The position numbers and the translations under genes are program-made. 64,000 nt of DNA from Candidatus Bathyarchaeota archaeon (GTDB lineage Archaea > Thermoproteota > Bathyarchaeia > Bathyarchaeales > Bathycorpusculaceae), in NCBI GenBank assembly GCA_963832745.1, contig CAWHVC010000005.1:384001-448000 (forward strand), written 5' to 3'. The notes beneath the pieces were generated by a model. That model had not been told where the DNA came from. It saw only the letters and a list, made by a program, of their open reading frames with translations, and did no database searches. Of the stretch, positions 44,085 to 54,990 are shown piece by piece (the first letter of the stretch is position 1; the number at the start of each line of letters is the position of its first letter).

Positions 44085-46967
44085 TTATTCGATGTAAATT
44101 GCTGGTTGATACGGCATTGCCATCGGTGCACGGTTTTTGGGGTCAAAACGGTCTTTGTCGTCTTCACTGTAAACGCTGACTTCAGCTCCGAAACGGTCCT
44201 TAAGGAAACCCAAAGCGTCGGCAACAATCTGCTTCTCATCGACGGTTTGGATTTTAACCATGTTTGCTTTTCGGTTACTTGCCAGTTTTGTTGATGCTTT
44301 GATGATTTTGGGTACCAAGGCGGCGATGTCTTTCATGTGTGGTTTAAGTTCAGGGTCTGCGGCGAATTCTTTCATGAGTTCGGGAATTTTCGCTTCACCG
44401 GAAACGACTTTTTCGAGGACTTTTAAGTAGATTTGCCATTTCCAAGCTGCAGCAGCGTAGAAGACGAGGCGTTTGGGCGTGATTTTGGTTGCTTTGAGGA
44501 TGTTTTGTGTGTCGGTTAAGATGTCGGTGATTAGGTTTTCTTGCTCTTCAGCGGCAAAATCCAGTTTAGCTTCGTCAAACTCTGGCCATTTAGCTACACT
44601 AATAAAGCCAGTTTCGCCTGTTTGGCTCCAAAGTTCCTCACACATATAAGGAGCAAACGGGGTAAGCATCTTAATCCAAACCTTAACCGTCTCGACAAGC
44701 GCGGCTGCGTTTGCGTTGCCTTTCCTTTGAATGTACCATCGCAGGTCATTCCACACTTCGAAAAGCGCCGTTTGCAGCGCAGTGCGTGTTTTAAGTTCAT
44801 CAAGACTCTCGGTAACTTCACGGATGCGGTACTGCAGTTTGCTTTGCAGCCAACGTTCCAGCACAGTGTTTTCATCCTGTTTGGTGGTTGCGATGATGTT
44901 GCTTGCAAAACCATTTAGGGATTCAAACTTGGTTTTGAGGTCGCTTACGTTGTCTGCTCGCCAGTCTGGGTCATCCATGCCTTCAGCGCCAATCATGAGT
45001 CCACAGCGGGTGGCGTCTGCGCCGTATTTGTCGATGGCGCCTTTCATTGTGATGAAGTTGCCTTTGCTTTTGTGCATGCCTTGACCTTCAACCATGAGCA
45101 TGCCGTTTACGCCGATGCCTTTTGGCCAATGTTCTGGCGGGAACAGGGCGGCGTGGTGGAAGATGCAGAATGAGAGGTGGTTGGGTACGAGTTCTTTTGC
45201 AGAGTTTCTTAGGTCGAATGGGTACCAGTAAAGGAATTCGTTGCGCATTGAATCTAAAAGCTCAACGCTGATGCCGGTTGCGGTGCTAATTTGGTTTTTG
45301 TCGCCTTTGCCATAGTAAATGTAGTCAAAAACTTCTGGAACAAGCGCTTCTGGAGCGATCTTGTTTTGGTTAATGTGCTTGTTTATGGTGTAGAATGCCA
45401 TGTAAATGGTGGAGTCGCTTAAGGTTTCAATTATCCAGCCTTTACCCCAGGGCAACGGCGTTCCAAAACCGGTGGTTCTTGCGCAAGCCCATTCACGGAG
45501 CCAATCGATGGTGGTGTAGAAGCCTGTGCGGGCGCCTTCAGGGTAAATCCTCATTTGCGCCACCACTTCTTTGGCTTTCTCTTTCCACTGCGGGTCAGAA
45601 TAGTTTAGAAACCATTGGTCAGAAAGAATCTTGACAATGCACTGTGTCATGCATCGGCAAACCACTTGTTCAGGCAAATCATACATGCTGTCGGAAACGC
45701 CAAGTTTGTGGAAGTCAGCAATCAATAAATCTTTAACTTCACGGATTGATTTGCCAGCGTAGACGCCGCAGTTGGGTTTTAGTTTGCCGCTGTGGAATTC
45801 TTTCTTGTAAAGCTCTTTAGTGGCTTGATCCGCTTTGGGGTCATGCTGATCTTTGATTCCCATCTGCTCAACAATTTCAACAGCTGGATACTCTCCGAAC
45901 CCGTCAACTTTAATGATTGAAATCGGCTTAATCTGCAAAACCACTTGTGGGTCAACACCGAAATCGCGCATGACTTCGGGTTTCTGCTGCAAATCCTTCA
46001 ATGCCAACCAGTCGAAGGGTGCGTGAGCAGGAACGCTGTAAACGACACCTGTTGCCGTTTTGGGATCAACAAACCAGCCTGGCAGGATCGGGAACTTTTC
46101 GTGGGTAACTGGATTTTCAAATGTTTTGCCGATTAATTCTTTACCTTTGAAAACGCGGTGTATTGTGACGGTTTTTTGTTGCTCTTTTAGTTTTTCTGCG
46201 GCTTCTTGGCTGATTATCCAGTTTTCACTGTTAACCGTGGCTTCTACGTAGGTAGAGTCGGGGTTAATCCACAAGTTGGTTATGCCGTAAATGGTTTCTG
46301 GACGGAAAGTTGCTGCTGGCAAAACTGTGGTTTCATCAAGTTTGTACTTGATTATAGTGTATTCTTCAGGGGTTACGCCTTCACCGATTTGACGGTCATG
46401 GTCGCCGGTGGGGCTTTGGTCTTTTGGACACCAAACAACCGGATGAGTGCCCCGTGTAACGTAGCCTTTTTCTTTTAGGTTTTTGTATTGCCATTCAATA
46501 AATTTCTGAAAAGTCGGCCAAACCGTAGTGAATTCTCTGCGCCAGTCAACTGAGAATCCGATGCGTTTAGCGGCGATTTTGCCTTCACTTGTGTAATATT
46601 GAGCCATATATTTTGGGTCAACAAACTTTTGCAGTTGCTCTTCTGGGACGCCGTCTACTTCGCGCAGGACACGGATGAATTCTTGGTCGCCTCTTGCTAC
46701 ACGTTGACTTGCACCCAGCAGAGGTTGTCCAGTCCAATGCCATGCCCAAGGCCAAAGCACGTTGTAGCCTTGCATGCGTTTGAAGCGGGCGTAAGCGTCA
46801 ACTCTGCTGGCGGAGAAAGCGTGACCAACATGTAAGGGTCCGTTCATGTATGGGAACGGGAATGTTACCATTACTTTTTGTCTTGCCGGGTCTGGGTCTG
46901 CTTCGAATATGTGTGCGGCTTCCCATCGGGATAGCCATTTTTCCTCGACTTGCTTTGTTTGGCTCAT
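44085..46967 (-). CDS. leuS: Leucyl-tRNA synthetase (archaeal type)
   Basis: FPYMNGPLHVGH, editing-domain ATFRPET and SVPAHAPFD, ETLSDSTIY, MHKSKGN. Confidence 0.95.
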   Translation of the reverse strand: MSQTKQVEEKWLSRWEAAHIFEADPDPARQKVMVTFPFPYMNGPLHVGHAFSASRVDAYARFKRMQGYNVLWPWAWHWTGQPLLGASQRVARGDQEFIRVLREVDGVPEEQLQKFVDPKYMAQYYTSEGKIAAKRIGFSVDWRREFTTVWPTFQKFIEWQYKNLKEKGYVTRGTHPVVWCPKDQSPTGDHDRQIGEGVTPEEYTIIKYKLDETTVLPAATFRPETIYGITNLWINPDSTYVEATVNSENWIISQEAAEKLKEQQKTVTIHRVFKGKELIGKTFENPVTHEKFPILPGWFVDPKTATGVVYSVPAHAPFDWLALKDLQQKPEVMRDFGVDPQVVLQIKPISIIKVDGFGEYPAVEIVEQMGIKDQHDPKADQATKELYKKEFHSGKLKPNCGVYAGKSIREVKDLLIADFHKLGVSDSMYDLPEQVVCRCMTQCIVKILSDQWFLNYSDPQWKEKAKEVVAQMRIYPEGARTGFYTTIDWLREWACARTTGFGTPLPWGKGWIIETLSDSTIYMAFYTINKHINQNKIAPEALVPEVFDYIYYGKGDKNQISTATGISVELLDSMRNEFLYWYPFDLRNSAKELVPNHLSFCIFHHAALFPPEHWPKGIGVNGMLMVEGQGMHKSKGNFITMKGAIDKYGADATRCGLMIGAEGMDDPDWRADNVSDLKTKFESLNGFASNIIATTKQDENTVLERWLQSKLQYRIREVTESLDELKTRTALQTALFEVWNDLRWYIQRKGNANAAALVETVKVWIKMLTPFAPYMCEELWSQTGETGFISVAKWPEFDEAKLDFAAEEQENLITDILTDTQNILKATKITPKRLVFYAAAAWKWQIYLKVLEKVVSGEAKIPELMKEFAADPELKPHMKDIAALVPKIIKASTKLASNRKANMVKIQTVDEKQIVADALGFLKDRFGAEVSVYSEDDKDRFDPKNRAPMAMPYQPAIYIE

Positions 46968-47102: not shown

Positions 47103-48113
47103 ATGTCAAGGGAAAGCTTAGCGGAAAAACTAATAGCTACATTGAACCAGAAAAGCGAAAAAGCCATTGACGCAGCAAAACAGTTAATTTTAGAAGAAAA
47201 ATTTTGTGGGGAAAAAGTTAACCAGACTCTTGAACAGTACACTGCAAAGTGGAGTGATAGCACAAGACCGGGAACGTTGGCTTTAGCGTTTGAAGCCGTA
47301 GGGGGAAACCCGGGTGATGTGGTGCCTCTTCAGACTGCGTTAGTGCTTATTGACGCCACAATGGATGTTCATGACGACATTATTGATGGTTCAATCGCCA
47401 AAAAGAACGTTAGAACGGTTTATGGCAAACTTGGGAAAGAAGCCACTTTGCTTCTGGGCGACGCTTTTATGGTTAAAGGTTTTAGGCAACTAAATAAGGC
47501 CACCGAGAATTTATCGAAAGAAAAAAGACAACAAATTGTAGATGCAGTTAACAGTTTTCTTCTTGAAGTAGTTGACGCACACATCAGCGAAGCACAGTTA
47601 AAGACTAAGAAGTGGAATATAACTCCTGAAACGTACCTGCAAGTTTTAACTGGTAAAGCGGCTGATATTGATGGGCGCATGAAAGTTGGCGCTATTTTTG
47701 GTGGAGGGTCACCAGGTGAGGTTGAAGCTTTGGGCAAGCTTGGAAGAAACCTTGGGGTTTTGCTGGTGATTAGGGCAGAATATGTGGACATGTTTGAGAC
47801 TGATGAGTTATCAAACCGTGTTAAGAATGAATGTTTACCCTTGCCTGTACTCTATGCCATTCAAAACAGGACCGCGAAAGGAAAAATCAAAAAAATCTTG
47901 TTAAAAGAAAAAATTACTCAAAAGGATTGCGAAGCTGTTCTTGAAATTTTGGACAAATCGAAGGAAATGAAAAATCTTAAAGAATATTTAGCAAAAATTG
48001 CTTTTGAATCAAAAATATTGGCAGAAAGTATAAAGGGAATTCAAGCACGAAACGACTTAAACAATTTAATCGCTTCATTGCTTGAAAATCTTATAGTCCT
48101 CTTTAGATGGTAA
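47103..48113 (+). CDS. Polyprenyl-synthase-fold (trans-prenyltransferase-like) protein with degenerate second Asp-rich motif
   Basis: RP, HDDIID (FARM), LLLGDA; SARM position reads IRAEYVD; ECLPLP. Confidence 0.8.
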   Translation: MSRESLAEKLIATLNQKSEKAIDAAKQLILEEKFCGEKVNQTLEQYTAKWSDSTRPGTLALAFEAVGGNPGDVVPLQTALVLIDATMDVHDDIIDGSIAKKNVRTVYGKLGKEATLLLGDAFMVKGFRQLNKATENLSKEKRQQIVDAVNSFLLEVVDAHISEAQLKTKKWNITPETYLQVLTGKAADIDGRMKVGAIFGGGSPGEVEALGKLGRNLGVLLVIRAEYVDMFETDELSNRVKNECLPLPVLYAIQNRTAKGKIKKILLKEKITQKDCEAVLEILDKSKEMKNLKEYLAKIAFESKILAESIKGIQARNDLNNLIASLLENLIVLFRW

Positions 48114-48153
48114 AGCGGACTGGTTTCTTTCTCACTTGTTTAACTGCCTTCAT
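48103..48153 (-). CDS. 16-aa basic peptide MKAVKQVRKKPVRFTI
   Basis: CAGGTGA SD 5 nt before ATG (48159-48165) and AAAGCTTATAT BRE/TATA (48189-48199) on the minus strand; not in the ORF track. Confidence 0.6.
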   Translation of the reverse strand: MKAVKQVRKKPVRFTI

Positions 48154-48295
48154 CCCTTTCACCTGTATATCTGTAGAACGCAGACACAATATAAGCTTTG
48201 TTGTACTACAGACATACAAGTGATAAAAAGCATGCTAAAAATACGTATTTTAGATTCATAAGGTTATAGGGCATGTATGCAATAGCACTACTTAG

Positions 48296-49613
48296 ATGTG
48301 CAAAACAAAACTCACCGATTGGCCAGTACTTTTTCTGGTTGCGAACAGCATATCCTGGTTTAGCCTTACCATGCTTATTATCGGAGATTTTGCTGGAGCA
48401 TATTCAACAAATGAAACATTAACTATTGCAGCAGGCTATTTCGGTGGCCTAATAATATCGGCAACAATAGGCGCCACCATTTTACAAAACAAATTAAGAA
48501 ACAAAGGGTTTTTGGCCTCATGGATTCTCTTTGGTGTTGCAACGTGCATAATATTTTCCCAAGTGGGCTTCACGGACGTTTTAAACATTACTTTAGCCTC
48601 ACTAGTCCTCGGAGTATCAGTGGGTTTAGGAATACCAACATGTTTTTCATTCTTTGCAAATCAAACAAAAATTGAAAACAGGGGAAAAATAGGGGCAATA
48701 CTGTTCTTTCTCATCCAATTTTTCAGTGCCATAATAATTCTTTCACAAACTGACATGGGAATCAGCAATCAATTTTTAATACTTGCATTATGGCGATTGA
48801 TAGGCGCAGTAGGAATCATTAGTTACAAATCACCATTGAATCAACAAAAAGAACCGGCGACATCCATTAGGTCAATCATCAAAGAAAGACCCGTTCTCCT
48901 TTTCTTCCTGCCATGGTTCCTGTTTACCTTAGTGAATTTTATTGAGTCACCAGTAATTGAGACTTATTTTGGTCCAGAACTTTTCAATAGTTCAGTGATA
49001 GCAACCACTTTTATTAGCAGCATTTCAGCGTTCCTTGCCGGAACGCTCTGCGATATCAAAGGTCGAAAAATCACAGGCATAATAGGTTTCGTTCTTTTAG
49101 GCTTAGGTTACGCGTTTCTAAGTTTTCTTAACTGGTCCTGAGAAGATTATTGCACAATATCTGTACATTTTATGCGATGGATTAGCATGGGGCATTCTTT
49201 TTGTTACATTCATTTTTGTCGTGTGGGGAGACTTATCAGAAGGCAAAAACCGTGAAAAATATTATCTTGTGGGCAGCATGCCTTTCCTCTTTTCAGGCAT
49301 GATAGAAATGCTAATTCAACCAATTGCAAAGGACATTGCTATAGGCACAGCATTTTCTCTTGCCAGTTTCTTCTTGTTCTTAGCAATCGTCCCATTGCTT
49401 TATACAACTGAAACTTTGCCTGAAAAAGCCATGAAAGATAGGGACCTTAAGAGTTATCTTGAAAAAGCTCAAAAAGTTGCTGAAAAAGAAGCCGCCAAAA
49501 AACATCATAAAGAAAAATCTAAATCTCAGAAAAAAGAAGAAAAGGAAACTGCTGAGGAAGAGAATTTTAAAGAGTACGAAGAAGCTCAAAAATTGGCAGA
49601 ACAATACTATTAA
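48296..49613 (+). pseudogene. MFS-type transporter interrupted by one +1 frameshift near 49130 (possibly a sequencing error)
   Basis: ENRGKIG and GTLCDIKGRK MFS motifs; after skipping one base the frame continues GPEKIIAQYLYILCDGLAWG...VVWGDL into ORF 49221-49613. Confidence 0.75.
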
Positions 49614-49637
49614 GCACGCGTTACGTAATGGCTTGGC

Positions 49638-50768
49638 ATGTTCTTTCACGTGATACTCACCACGGACTGCAACCTTCAATGTAAATACTGCTTCGGCGAA
49701 TCCCTTGACGATTTTGACGAAGACTTCAGTGACGACTTAACAGTAGACTATTCATTGCCAAGAAAAATCACTTATAACATCAAAATGTTAAAAGAATTTT
49801 GCAGCAAAGACCCCGACTGTGTATTGACGTTTTATGGCGGCGAACCTTTGATGCAGATGGAGCCGCTTAAGCAAATCATGGACAATATTGAACCTAAAAT
49901 GTACATGATGCAAACCAACGGTTTACTTCTTGACAAACTTGAGTCCAAGTACGTTAACCGTTTCCACACCCTGCTTGTCTCAGTTGACGGCGAGGAAGTT
50001 TTAACTGATTATTACCGTGGAGCGGGCACTTTTCGCAAAGTCGTCGATAACCTAAAACTCATAAAACAAAACGGCTTCAAAGGCGAATTAATCGCCAGAG
50101 TCACAGTGATGGAGCAAACAGACATTTACAAACAAATCCGCTGGCTACTTGAAAACAAAGAGTTCCCATTCACTTCGTTACATTGGCAGCTTAACGCTGG
50201 TTTCTGGGGCAACGATTACCAAAGACGCAACTTCAAAGAGTGGTCAGAAACCAACTATATTCCAGGTGTTAGGGCGCTTGTCAAATTCTGGGTTGATACT
50301 ATGGAACAGAAAGGTCAGGTGCTAAAGCTTTACCCAATTTTAGGCGTAGCATACTCAATGCTGCATGATGAAAACGTGAATTTTCTGCGTTGCGGCGGCG
50401 GATGGGTAAATTATGCCATTCAAACAGACGGTTACATTTTGGCTTGTCCAACAATGTGGGGAATGACGCAGCATTACCTGGGACACATCGCTGATGCACA
50501 TCCGCTTAAGCTTGAGAAAGTGTTTGTTAATCAGCCGCCTTGCTCTGAATGTGAAATTCTAAACATGTGCGGTGGCAGATGCTACTACGCCAACGTAACG
50601 CAACGGTGGAGCGTGGATGCTTACAAGGAAGTCTGCAACACAGTCAAAGCCCTTGTTGATGATGTCTCAGTGGAGGTTCCACGCATAAAACAGTTAATAG
50701 CTCAAGAAAAAATCAGCTTAGCAGATTTTGACTTTATCAAATACAACGGCGCTGAAATCATTCCATAA
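49638..50768 (+). CDS. Radical SAM/SPASM protein (resembles AF_0577/TIGR04084 putative peptide-modifying family)
   Basis: CNLQCKYC, FYGGEP, QTNG, SVDG; SPASM CGGG...DGYILACP...CSEC...CGGRC...C; ends AEIIP. Confidence 0.85.
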   Translation: MFFHVILTTDCNLQCKYCFGESLDDFDEDFSDDLTVDYSLPRKITYNIKMLKEFCSKDPDCVLTFYGGEPLMQMEPLKQIMDNIEPKMYMMQTNGLLLDKLESKYVNRFHTLLVSVDGEEVLTDYYRGAGTFRKVVDNLKLIKQNGFKGELIARVTVMEQTDIYKQIRWLLENKEFPFTSLHWQLNAGFWGNDYQRRNFKEWSETNYIPGVRALVKFWVDTMEQKGQVLKLYPILGVAYSMLHDENVNFLRCGGGWVNYAIQTDGYILACPTMWGMTQHYLGHIADAHPLKLEKVFVNQPPCSECEILNMCGGRCYYANVTQRWSVDAYKEVCNTVKALVDDVSVEVPRIKQLIAQEKISLADFDFIKYNGAEIIP

Positions 50769-50817: not shown

Positions 50818-53163
50818 TCAAGTTTGGGGTAGCTGGGGTTGTTCAGGATTAAGCGGAATTTTAACGGTCACAGTTGTTCCTTGTCCAAGTGTGCTGTCAA
50901 TCAAGAGCTTGCCGCCGTGAGCTTCCACGATACGTTTGCAGATGGGTATCCCGAAACCCATGCCCTTAGCTTTTGTTGTAAACAAGGGGTTACCCAGCTT
51001 CTGCAACGTTTCTTTAGTCATGCCCTCGCCGGAATCAGTGAAAGCTACAACCCAGTTTTTCCTAGTCTGTTTGCTGATTATTGTTAGGTTTCCTCCTTTT
51101 GGCATAGCATCAAAAGCGTTCTTGAGGATGTTTAAAAAGACGCGAAGCATTTTTGCCGAGTCAAATTTTACTGGAGCATCATTTGAGGCTTGATGGACAA
51201 CTTTGATGTTCTGCGGTACCTGAATTGTTGATAAAGTGTAAGTGAAGAATATTGACGGATTGTTCTCGGTTAAGTCTACCTTGACAGTTCTTGAGTATTC
51301 CAGCAGGTCGTTCACGATTTTGTTTGATTGATCTATGCAGTCATCGATTAAGTCAAGCATTTCCTTGGTTTTAGGGTTAGAATCATTTCTTGTTTTTCCC
51401 TTCAAATAGTATGTTGCAGCTTTCATGCCCGTTAATGGGTTACGCAAGTCATGACCCACCATCGCGGCTAATTCGCCGATGGCTGCGAGCCTTTCCGTTT
51501 TTACCAGTTTTTCTTGTGTTTCTTTAAGCTGCTTTGTTCTCGCCTCAACTAGCCGTTCCAGTTTTGTTGAATGTTGGCTTTCCAGTCGCCTTTTTTCGGT
51601 TACATCTACAGCTAACTCTAACGCAGACATAATCTTGCCGTTTTCATCTTTAATCGGGGTTACAATAAGTTCTGTGCATCTTTGTTCGCCCTTCTTGTTG
51701 ATGAAGTAGTAATCGTGACGATTTACTGATTCGAGGTTATCAAAAATCTTTTGAACACCACAGCCATCACATACGCCTTGTTCATTGTTAAATATTGTAT
51801 AGCAAAGCTGATTTTGGATAGACTCATTCCGTAATCCCCGCATAAGCTTGTTAGCCCATAATATCCGGTAATCTCTACTAATGATGGCAAGGCCTGCATC
51901 AATGTTTTCTGTAATTGTTTCAAGAAGGTCACGTTCCTGTTTTAGGGACTCTTCCATTTTTTTACGGTTAGAAACGTCATGAACGACACCTGCAACGTAT
52001 TTTTTGTCTTTAAGCTGAAGACTAGTTGCTGACAATTCAGCTGGGAAAAAGGTTTTGTCTTTTCTAACAGCGGTAACTTCGAGAGCTTTGTTACTTTTCT
52101 GTTTGTTTTTAGCAAGTTTCTTAAGGCAAAACTTGTGATCTTCCCGGTTTTCGGCTGGAATAACTAAGTCACTTAACCTTTTTCCAATTGCCTCTTGTAT
52201 GGGGTAACCAAACATTTTTTCAGCTGATGGATTCCAATAAACAATTTTATCGTCTTCGTCAACTAAAATTAATGCATCAATCGCTGTTGTGGCTATGGCG
52301 CGGAATTTTTCTTCACTTGCGATTAAATCGTCTTCAAGCTTTTTACGTTCAGAAATATTTTTAGTGTTAACCACAAACCCAATTATTTTCCCGTTTCTAT
52401 TTACTGGGTTTGAATTAATTTCTGCAGGGAACTCTTGGCCAGCTTTATTTGTTAAGGTGTATATTTCTGTTTTAAGAATGCCAGTTTTAATAATTTTTTC
52501 TAAGGCATACTTAACCCGTTTTTGTTCTCTTTCCGGTACGTGCTTGAAAATATTCAGGTTAATTGCTTCGTCTCTAGATGAGTAACCAAAAAGTTTCATG
52601 GCGCCCATATTATAATCTAACAATCGACCATCAGGTGTAATAAATGATATAGCATCAGGCGATGATTCGAAAATAGTCCGCATCTTTTCAGCGCTTTCTT
52701 GGATTTCACGTACTTTTTCGTTAACTAAAGAGGCAAGTCTTTGAGAGTCTTCCTTTAATTTTTGCTCAACAAGTATCCTGTTAGTTATATCTCTAAGAAT
52801 GATTAAAACAGATGATTGATAACCGAAGAAATTAATTTTTTTAGCGTTTAACTCAAAGTATCTTTTCGTATTATCTGCAGATTTTATACTTATCTCGTAC
52901 GGGGGAACTTCAATATCTAAAAGTCTTTTTTCCAGATTTTCTTTTACTAAAGCTAAATCTTCAATCATCAAATTATCAGTTACAAAAGAGCTTTTACCAG
53001 TCCATTCATCATTTCGGTGGCCTGTAACTTTTTCGAATGCATGATTTATCAGCAAATAGTTGCCTTTTTCGTCAATTATTGCTGCTGGGTCGGCGATAAA
53101 GTTTAGCAACAAGAGAAAGTTATCTATTGCATGTTCAGCGTTTGTATCCTGCATGCTTTTCAC
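50818..53163 (-). CDS. Cytoplasmic multi-PAS histidine kinase
   Basis: Four PAS/PAC repeats; GHDLRNPL H-box, NILKNAFDA, DSGEG, FTTK, GMGFG. Confidence 0.92.
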   Translation of the reverse strand: MKSMQDTNAEHAIDNFLLLLNFIADPAAIIDEKGNYLLINHAFEKVTGHRNDEWTGKSSFVTDNLMIEDLALVKENLEKRLLDIEVPPYEISIKSADNTKRYFELNAKKINFFGYQSSVLIILRDITNRILVEQKLKEDSQRLASLVNEKVREIQESAEKMRTIFESSPDAISFITPDGRLLDYNMGAMKLFGYSSRDEAINLNIFKHVPEREQKRVKYALEKIIKTGILKTEIYTLTNKAGQEFPAEINSNPVNRNGKIIGFVVNTKNISERKKLEDDLIASEEKFRAIATTAIDALILVDEDDKIVYWNPSAEKMFGYPIQEAIGKRLSDLVIPAENREDHKFCLKKLAKNKQKSNKALEVTAVRKDKTFFPAELSATSLQLKDKKYVAGVVHDVSNRKKMEESLKQERDLLETITENIDAGLAIISRDYRILWANKLMRGLRNESIQNQLCYTIFNNEQGVCDGCGVQKIFDNLESVNRHDYYFINKKGEQRCTELIVTPIKDENGKIMSALELAVDVTEKRRLESQHSTKLERLVEARTKQLKETQEKLVKTERLAAIGELAAMVGHDLRNPLTGMKAATYYLKGKTRNDSNPKTKEMLDLIDDCIDQSNKIVNDLLEYSRTVKVDLTENNPSIFFTYTLSTIQVPQNIKVVHQASNDAPVKFDSAKMLRVFLNILKNAFDAMPKGGNLTIISKQTRKNWVVAFTDSGEGMTKETLQKLGNPLFTTKAKGMGFGIPICKRIVEAHGGKLLIDSTLGQGTTVTVKIPLNPEQPQLPQT

Positions 53164-54384: not shown

Positions 54385-54990
54385 TTATTCGTGGGTTTTA
54401 TTGTTTTTGAGCATTTTTATGCTAATGATGATTACCCAGATGGAGCCGGTTAAGCCTGAAATGGTTTCTGGGATGGCTACGTTGGGAACATAGTGTATGG
54501 TGTAGTAGAGAATCCATGGTGCCGCAGCAACGAAAGAGGCAACCAATGTGAAGACTGCTAATCCAACCTTGCGCCTCAGATACAATGCCGCGGTTATAAC
54601 CCAAAAAGCAATCGGCAAAGTAACAAAAAACAACACTGAAACAATGTAATGTATGGGACGAAAACTTTCGTTAAATATGCCAATCGCCATCAACCAAATG
54701 GTTGCAACTGCAAAAACCATAGCTCCAGCTCTTCCAACATTGGAGCCTTTGAAATAACTAAATAAGCCCATGACGGCAAAAAGGAATCCTAACAAGCCCG
54801 CCGTGAAAAGGCCTGAGTTGAAAACGGGACCAGTTATGCCAGCTACGACGCCTAAATCGCTTAAAGCGTTATTGACCCAGCTAAATTCTGCGTAAGAAAT
54901 AATCGCTATACCAATGCAAGTGAATGCAACTATAGGTACCGCTAAACCGCAGGCTGCACCTATTTTCTTCAAGACTATCTGAGTTGACAT
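54385..54990 (-). CDS. DUF998-like membrane protein
   Basis: FSWVNNALSDLG, FNSGL, IGIFNE, H; AIPE. Confidence 0.8.
   Translation of the reverse strand: MSTQIVLKKIGAACGLAVPIVAFTCIGIAIISYAEFSWVNNALSDLGVVAGITGPVFNSGLFTAGLLGFLFAVMGLFSYFKGSNVGRAGAMVFAVATIWLMAIGIFNESFRPIHYIVSVLFFVTLPIAFWVITAALYLRRKVGLAVFTLVASFVAAAPWILYYTIHYVPNVAIPETISGLTGSIWVIIISIKMLKNNKTHE

Follow-up and report, generated by a model that had tools for sequence, protein, structure and literature searches.

The 64,000-nucleotide stretch analysed here (the window; positions 384,001 to 448,000 of contig CAWHVC010000005.1, from a Candidatus Bathyarchaeota archaeon genome of 3.02 Mb in 5 contigs) harbours a gene unit that is conserved in part of the Bathyarchaeia. 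Its core consists of a polyprenyl-synthase-fold homologue (PPSL), a very small gene (the micro-gene) coding for the 16-aa peptide MKAVKQVRKKPVRFTI, and a transporter of the major facilitator superfamily (MFS). We tentatively read it as a system for peptide prenylation and export resembling ComQ/ComX or PalQ/PalX, which we hold to be possible, if somewhat short of probable. The unit and the enzyme gene that follows it in the window are laid out as follows:

47103-48113, plus strand: PPSL, polyprenyl-synthase-fold homologue of 336 aa (PF00348, 71.6 bits, E 7.6e-20)
48103-48153, minus strand: micro-gene, an open reading frame (ORF) for the 16-aa peptide, at a spacer position that recurs across loci
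48154-48230, minus strand: control region of the micro-gene, with Shine-Dalgarno (SD)-like and TATA-like motifs and inverted-repeat arms
48296-49613, plus strand: MFS transporter gene, in two frames as given (48296-49141 and 49221-49613; PF07690, 42 bits)
49638-50768, plus strand: radical S-adenosylmethionine (SAM)/SPASM enzyme of the AF0577 type (TIGR04084, 307 bits against a cut-off of 225)

A preliminary description of this DNA had reported a prenyl-synthase-fold gene converging on a 16-aa ORF, an MFS gene with a radical SAM/SPASM gene 24 nt behind its stop, and a multi-PAS kinase gene converging on the latter, and all of these were recovered here. The micro-ORF overlaps PPSL by the last 11 nt of the PPSL gene.

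A pattern scan of species-representative genomes yielded 61 loci, almost all of them carrying Bathyarchaeia or Bathyarchaeota in their titles, in which neighbouring genes were called by tblastn using the window proteins. The MFS gene directly followed PPSL in all 56 loci with at least 700 nt of DNA downstream of PPSL, and the five loci without an MFS match all end less than 500 nt past PPSL. A micro-ORF was present on the minus strand of the PPSL-MFS spacer in 51 of the 54 loci holding both genes; L052 and L056 are without a canonical micro-ORF (in L056, its place holds MKINKKTFIK only), and in L064 the micro-ORF is disrupted. The preliminary description had named a lack of conserved linkage in the flanks of homologues as the result that would speak against its proposal. 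Since PPSL, micro-ORF and MFS are linked in essentially every locus examined, this objection falls. PPSL was detected in 60 of 251 surveyed Bathyarchaeia genomes, each at least 80% complete (profile A2, E at most 1e-30).

The spacer between PPSL and MFS is typically 170-230 nt long and could be aligned over 34 loci, with a strongly conserved core (alignment A3). The micro-ORFs begin with ATG in 47 of 51 cases, and in most loci their stop lies 2-8 nt from the PPSL stop. Mean entropy at codon positions 1, 2 and 3 was 1.21, 1.02 and 1.62, respectively (37 unique codon-anchored sequences). In the Pro codon (CCN) both C are invariant and the third base has an entropy of 1.69, and the Arg that follows Pro-x is encoded by CGN or AGR among the loci. 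This codon-position pattern and the synonymous switching of Arg point to selection on the peptide rather than on the DNA, and judged by its codons the 16-aa ORF is a real gene under purifying selection. A strict peptide pattern matched 42 times in the minus-strand spacer and 7 times elsewhere in the 787,712 bases of the same loci; among these 7, at least 3 are true (an extra identical copy in L017, and spacer copies in L042 and L048 that had been missed). As a control, 179,492 bases of radical SAM-only loci without PPSL gave 2 matches. Tandem second copies of the micro-gene, coding for identical peptides and spaced about 220-310 nt apart, were found in L021, L024, L032 and L069. The extra copy in L017 lies upstream of PPSL, at about 7621 on the minus strand.

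Reading along the minus strand, the control region contains an SD-like GGTGA (48159-48163) and a TATA-like AAAGCTTATAT (48189-48199), the latter bracketed by inverted-repeat arms of 21 nt (48159-48179 and 48203-48223) that are 86% complementary. This block is conserved over the 34 aligned spacers, with the arm sequences CTGTATAT.TGTAGAACA and TGTTGAACA.A.ATACAG conserved in the window and the aligned spacers L015-L073 (A3). Under a permissive pattern, a purine-rich SD-like motif was present within 16 nt of the start in all 51 micro-ORFs, and an A/T (TATA-like) box in 44 of them, mostly about 40-46 nt upstream of the start. An Rfam scan of the region around 48 kb (47900-48500, E at most 10) returned chance microRNA-type matches only, reflecting the inverted repeat. 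Among sequencing runs, the look-up listed no RNA data set and one DNA run with a 0.07 share of the words. As for the separately promoted peptide gene of the preliminary description, the promoter-like region is indeed conserved, and we infer that it acts as a promoter or operator of the micro-gene. In 28 loci, two divergently oriented genes for PadR regulators immediately precede PPSL; together with the inverted repeat, this suggests repressor control of the micro-gene.

Three PF00348 genes were found in the genome: a canonical geranylgeranyl diphosphate synthase (GGPPS; 218 bits, motifs VIDDIED and FQMQDDILD), which adjoins a type-2 isopentenyl diphosphate isomerase gene away from PPSL; PPSL itself; and a divergent paralogue, PPSL-B, on contig 4. 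The window PPSL was aligned to 16 relatives (39-81% identical) and to the canonical GGPPS of the same genome. The first Asp-rich motif, HDDIID, which serves to bind metal and diphosphate, is intact, D88, H90, D91, D92 and D95 being invariant in 17 of 17 sequences. Where canonical enzymes have the second motif, DDxxD, all 17 family members carry (A/S)E(Y/F)(V/I)D; the window PPSL reads LVIRAEYVD where the canonical GGPPS of its own genome has FQMQDDILD, so the degeneracy of this motif that was noticed at the outset (RAEYVD as against DDILD) is genuine. Besides, the RRG after the first motif is changed to KKN, and GKRxRP of the canonical enzyme to xxTRPG. PPSL therefore lacks the combination of two DDxxD motifs and basic residues for binding isopentenyl diphosphate by which chain-elongating trans-prenyl diphosphate synthases are recognised. 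Its AlphaFold model has a pLDDT of 91.7, and the closest solved fold is the GGPPS of Pyrococcus horikoshii (1WY0, TM-score 0.81; profile match 98.8 bits). The best NCBIfam match is IdsA, with 87 bits against a cut-off of 468, and every NCBIfam equivalog cut-off is far above the scores of PPSL. By these comparisons, PPSL keeps the fold and the donor-binding motif, with the parts for condensation with isopentenyl diphosphate altered.

The 48 unique peptides encoded by the micro-genes are 13-22 aa long; they share an N-terminus rich in Lys and Arg that closes with (K/V)-P-(V/I/K)-R, after which a variable tail follows. In the window peptide the basic, leader-like N-terminus ends in Pro-Val-Arg and the tail is FTI (RFTI); as had been remarked before, it contains neither Trp nor Cys. 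The tail holds a Trp in 23 of the 48 peptides (as the final residue in 13); in 14 others, with RFTI of the window among them, Phe or Tyr is the sole kind of aromatic residue. The near-invariant Pro-x-Arg could serve for recognition or processing, or could itself be where the modification is placed. Taken together, tandem duplication, conserved N-terminus and hypervariable tail suggest a likeness to precursors of peptides that are made by the ribosome and modified after translation (RiPPs).

The same genome carries a second cassette (contig 4, L002 44-3828), where PPSL-B is followed by a convergent ORF of 72 aa and then an MFS gene; upstream, PPSL-B is preceded by genes for a winged-helix protein and a ParA/MinD-like ATPase. 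Proteins of 72-75 aa occupy the same convergent position in L089-L091, with 40-50% identity to the 72-aa protein of our genome, and CRxAKIP and a C-terminal K(W/Y)P are invariant in this family. Paralogue modules with a GGR-like gene contain convergent ORFs of 87 aa (L092 3688-3948, minus strand) and 85 aa (L093 3807-4061, plus strand), and both products end in Trp. Leader profiles of the Nif11 and NHLP types matched neither the L002 small protein (Pfam, E at most 1) nor any of six small proteins (NCBIfam, E at most 10). By hhalign, the 72-aa family gave a weak match to the L093 small protein (probability 61%, E 7.9e-5) and nothing to that of L092. A complex prediction for PPSL-B and the 72-aa protein scored 0.69, as against 0.00 for the best of 3 controls; 58 of 80 solved complexes come up to this mark, as do 2 of 110 mismatched pairs, a rough yardstick as custom 4-row alignments were used. 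The runs agree in at least 67% of contacts, the partner has a pLDDT of at least 74, and the modelled interface includes two stretches of PPSL-B, residues 97-99 directly behind the first motif and residues 223-230 directly behind the pseudo-second one. The prediction supports binding of the 72-aa protein to PPSL-B.

In most relatives the MFS transporter is encoded by a single intact ORF of about 400-455 aa, for example by one of 437 aa in L015 (9194-10507). The frameshift already noted in the window could be traced to one extra T in a homopolymer (TTTT at 49123-49126, as against TTT in the close relatives L014 and L015), and would reflect a mistake in the assembly or else a pseudogene of very recent origin. 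Split MFS ORFs also occur in L044, L052, L058, L064 and L070. The C-terminus of the window MFS (49420-49613) forms a long Lys/Glu-rich tail ending in AEQYY (AEKYY in L015), which aligns over its full length in closer relatives only.

The enzyme encoded downstream of MFS contains CxxxCxxC from residue 11 and, as read in its translation, a C-terminal CxxCx5Cx3C SPASM signature; Pfam assigned Radical_SAM and Fer4_12 only. Among characterised enzymes, those nearest to it by profile are the PapB family (95 bits) and anSME (66 bits), solved relatives are CteB and anSME, and a protein-atlas look-up returned its own archaeal clusters only. Pfam detected no peptide-recognition (RRE/PqqD-like) domain, for which there is no N-terminal extension because CxxxCxxC begins at residue 11, and no PqqD-like gene was seen at the locus. 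A literature search on TIGR04084 / AF0577 found no relevant publication on this uncharacterised family. The gene follows MFS on the same strand in 41 of the 47 loci with at least 600 nt past MFS, and is missing there in L033, L043, L049, L063, L068 and L069. The gap to MFS has a median of 34.5 nt and is at most 150 nt in 37 of all 46 matches, truncated ones included, and the two genes are probably co-transcribed. In both loci without a canonical micro-ORF the radical SAM gene is damaged (frameshifted in L052, truncated at 169 aa in L056). The MFS of L052 is fragmented too, and the two loci are related, so that their joint loss is effectively one event.

Among the 251 surveyed genomes, TIGR04084 was found in 129 (E at most 1e-50): 47 genomes have both genes, 13 PPSL only, 82 TIGR04084 only and 109 neither, and in genus g25 PPSL is present in all 4 genomes and TIGR04084 in none. 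The two genes lie within 5 kb of each other in 28 of the 47 genomes with both, and all 28 belong to family f1, that of the window; outside f1 they are far apart or on separate contigs. In 14 loci from genomes devoid of PPSL, the radical SAM proteins are 32-51% identical to that of the window, and their surroundings contain no MFS, PPSL, GGR or PadR gene and no conserved neighbour. TIGR04084 also exceeded its cut-off in the control genome of Sulfolobus acidocaldarius; in this organism the radical SAM genes Saci_0343 and Saci_1489 (Cds, calditol synthase) have been knocked out (PMC13459092), and either might be its TIGR04084 member. The tight placement in f1 suggests recruitment of a TIGR04084 enzyme into the cassette. 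The early caution that this gene may be an unrelated neighbour retains part of its force: the regular position behind MFS argues against it, and yet linkage confined to one family, with wide occurrence of the enzyme outside the cassette, makes its membership uncertain.

Further features of the window flank the four-gene block or lie beyond it:

44085-46967, minus strand: leucyl-tRNA synthetase (LeuRS), one flank of the four-gene block
50818-53163, minus strand: multi-PAS histidine kinase (Pfam PAS, HisKA, HATPase_c)
54385-54990, minus strand: DUF998 membrane protein (PF06197, 82.7 bits)

Outer neighbours vary among the loci; apart from the PadR pair, LeuRS was found upstream in 21 loci. A homologue of the PAS kinase was present nearby in 11 of 62 clustered loci. 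No segment of the kinase is strongly hydrophobic (the Kyte-Doolittle mean over 19 residues peaks at 1.6), in agreement with the earlier remark that it lacks a transmembrane sensor, and no response regulator was seen at the locus. This soluble kinase is a neighbour of doubtful relevance. Homologues of the DUF998 protein (cluster c12) immediately precede the PadR pair and PPSL in L043, L048, L049, L065, L066 and L069.

In the mechanism that we infer, PPSL would ionise an allylic prenyl diphosphate at its first Asp-rich motif and pass the prenyl group to the peptide instead of isopentenyl diphosphate, in the manner of ComQ acting on ComX and PalQ on PalX. The conserved N-terminus would serve as the docking (leader-like) part of the peptide, the variable tail would carry or neighbour the modified residue, and MFS would export the modified product, with the radical SAM enzyme perhaps contributing a further modification. 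We favour this reading because the donor motif is kept and the elongation residues are lost, the small gene resembles a precursor gene in that its product joins a conserved docking region to a hypervariable end in which Trp is common, tandem copies of it occur, a dedicated transporter is present, and the modelled interface of the paralogous pair lies at the mouth of the active site.

Several observations weigh against prenylation of the peptide. The evidence consists of sequences and models, and the related genomes compared are not independent samples. PPSL appears no nearer to ComQ than to ordinary archaeal synthases, and its best solved relative is a GGPPS; no ComQ model was among its 14 NCBIfam matches (E at most 0.01), the library's holding of such a model being unconfirmed. 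The complex model concerns the paralogous pair, not the 16-aa peptide of the window. The Trp acceptor near the precursor C-terminus that characterises ComQ-type systems is absent from the window peptide, Trp is likewise missing from 25 of the 48 unique peptides, and in 11 of the 48 the tail has no aromatic residue at all, so a purely ComX-like prenylation of Trp cannot be general. As for the radical SAM enzyme, 13 of the 60 PPSL genomes do without TIGR04084, 82 of 251 genomes carry it without PPSL, and the two are adjacent in f1 only. Finally, a GGR-like FAD oxidoreductase gene adjoins the cassette in 7 loci, as well as the paralogue modules L092, L093 and L095, an arrangement that would suit a lipid product no less than a peptide. 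The preliminary description had proposed an RiPP or quorum-type system making a lipidated or cross-linked peptide. The linkage, the coding signature, the ComQ-like motifs and the paralogue model speak for this proposal; the lineage-bound radical SAM gene, the kinase present in 11 of 62 loci and the missing Trp speak against it.

The main rival, which we regard as rather unlikely, is that PPSL produces, and MFS transports, an isoprenoid that is not a peptide, for instance a lipid or an irregular or specialised prenyl compound. The product of the small gene would then be not a substrate but a subunit with an accessory or regulatory role in PPSL or in the transporter, similar to the small subunits of heteromeric prenyl diphosphate synthases. 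It would accommodate the ordinary trans-prenyl-synthase fold with its intact first motif, the GGR-like genes beside the cassettes and the 11 peptides without an aromatic acceptor, and a subunit would explain the predicted contact between PPSL-B and the 72-aa protein equally well. However, a hypervariable tail, a leader-like N-terminus, tandem copies and a frequent terminal Trp are typical of precursors and not subunit-like, and the known small subunits are much larger than 13-22 aa.

Two other explanations both fit the counts poorly. According to one of them, which we consider quite improbable, the peptide is a substrate of the TIGR04084 enzyme only (by cross-linking, epimerisation or similar) and PPSL has another role. 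The closeness of the radical SAM gene to MFS would agree with this (behind it in 41 of 47 loci, with the median gap of 34.5 nt), as would the characterised relatives of the enzyme, which are the peptide or protein maturases PapB, anSME and CteB, and its breakage in both loci without a canonical micro-ORF. Yet the micro-gene tracks PPSL and MFS and is present in the six loci without a nearby radical SAM gene (L033, L043, L049, L063, L068 and L069); the cassette is absent from the 14 radical SAM loci of PPSL-less genomes; the family reaches as far as S. acidocaldarius; and the enzyme offers no N-terminal extension for a peptide-recognition domain. The other explanation holds that the genes are unrelated neighbours and that the 16-aa ORF merely arises from a terminator region behind PPSL; the plus strand past the PPSL stop is indeed T-rich, which yields Lys codons on the minus strand. 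This is hardly credible in the light of the codon-position pattern, the synonymous Arg switching and the invariant Pro codon, the conserved start with its SD-like and TATA-like elements, and the recurrence of the micro-ORF in 51 of 54 loci despite differing outer neighbours, where it is strongly enriched relative to the remaining sequence of these loci.

In sediments, Bathyarchaeia rank with the most abundant archaea, and they have barely been cultivated. If peptide prenylation is the correct reading, the cassette would open a first way into the peptide-based chemistry or signalling of this group and supply a new type of prenyltransferase for peptide engineering. The micro-gene is, moreover, a clear case of a conserved gene of 13-22 codons overlooked by gene callers. 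We may speculate further that the micro-peptides are secreted signals, an archaeal counterpart of ComX that is lipidated by the prenyltransferase, optionally modified by the radical SAM enzyme and exported by the dedicated MFS, although we consider this doubtful. Were it true, the hypervariable tail of 2-9 residues would represent a pherotype-like diversification, and paralogous cassettes in one genome would provide parallel channels.

Among known systems, ComQ/ComX invites the closest comparison. ComQ is described with its first Asp-rich motif as present and the second as lacking, with a pseudo-second motif implicated in acceptor binding (PMC10853753), and a supplementary-figure legend states that its second-motif residues vary considerably (PMC13731918). 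The archaeal cassette shares with it a synthase-fold enzyme with the first motif kept and the second degenerate, beside a small peptide gene with a variable C-terminus, and in the window a histidine kinase gene is nearby, as in ComQXPA. It differs in its archaeal host; in a very basic peptide of 13-22 aa whose gene is convergent and has its own promoter-like region, unlike comQX; in the Trp missing from the window peptide and about half of the others; in the ever-present dedicated MFS gene; and in PPSL showing no specific sequence affinity to ComQ among its NCBIfam matches. The kinase, too, is unlike that of ComQXPA, being soluble where a membrane sensor would be expected, without a response-regulator partner and seldom conserved. 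As for PalQ/PalX of Paenibacillus alvei, its small precursor combines a docking region that is conserved with a Trp at the C-terminus and is adjoined by a prenyltransferase of the synthase superfamily and a kinase (PMC10853753). A terminal Trp likewise occurs in 13 of the 48 micro-peptides and in the L092 and L093 small proteins, whereas the window peptide ends in Ile; PalX is an NHLP-type precursor, whereas the six archaeal small proteins matched neither Nif11 nor NHLP profiles.

With IdsA and GGPPS, PPSL has in common the fold (TM-score 0.81 to 1WY0), the first motif and the Pfam family, but its second DDxxD is lost, the basic residues of RRG and GKRxR are changed, and a separate canonical enzyme is encoded in the genome. 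The radical SAM enzyme resembles PapB, CteB and anSME in CxxxCxxC and the SPASM cysteine signature, and PapB and anSME in profile similarity, and a very short precursor-like gene near a radical SAM gene recalls PqqE/PqqA and MftC/MftA; in contrast to such maturases, it has no peptide-recognition domain, and TIGR04084 genes are mostly found away from a peptide gene of this kind. According to the two reports cited above, Bacillus and Paenibacillus are the only known sources of ribosomal peptides prenylated by enzymes of the synthase fold (PMC10853753, PMC13731918), and a literature search by title returned nothing tying ComQ-type enzymes to archaea or Bathyarchaeia, nor any such system in archaea. 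What would be new here, if the analogy holds, is a ComQ-like logic in archaea that combines a micro-peptide precursor with a dedicated MFS transporter and, in one family, a radical SAM partner.

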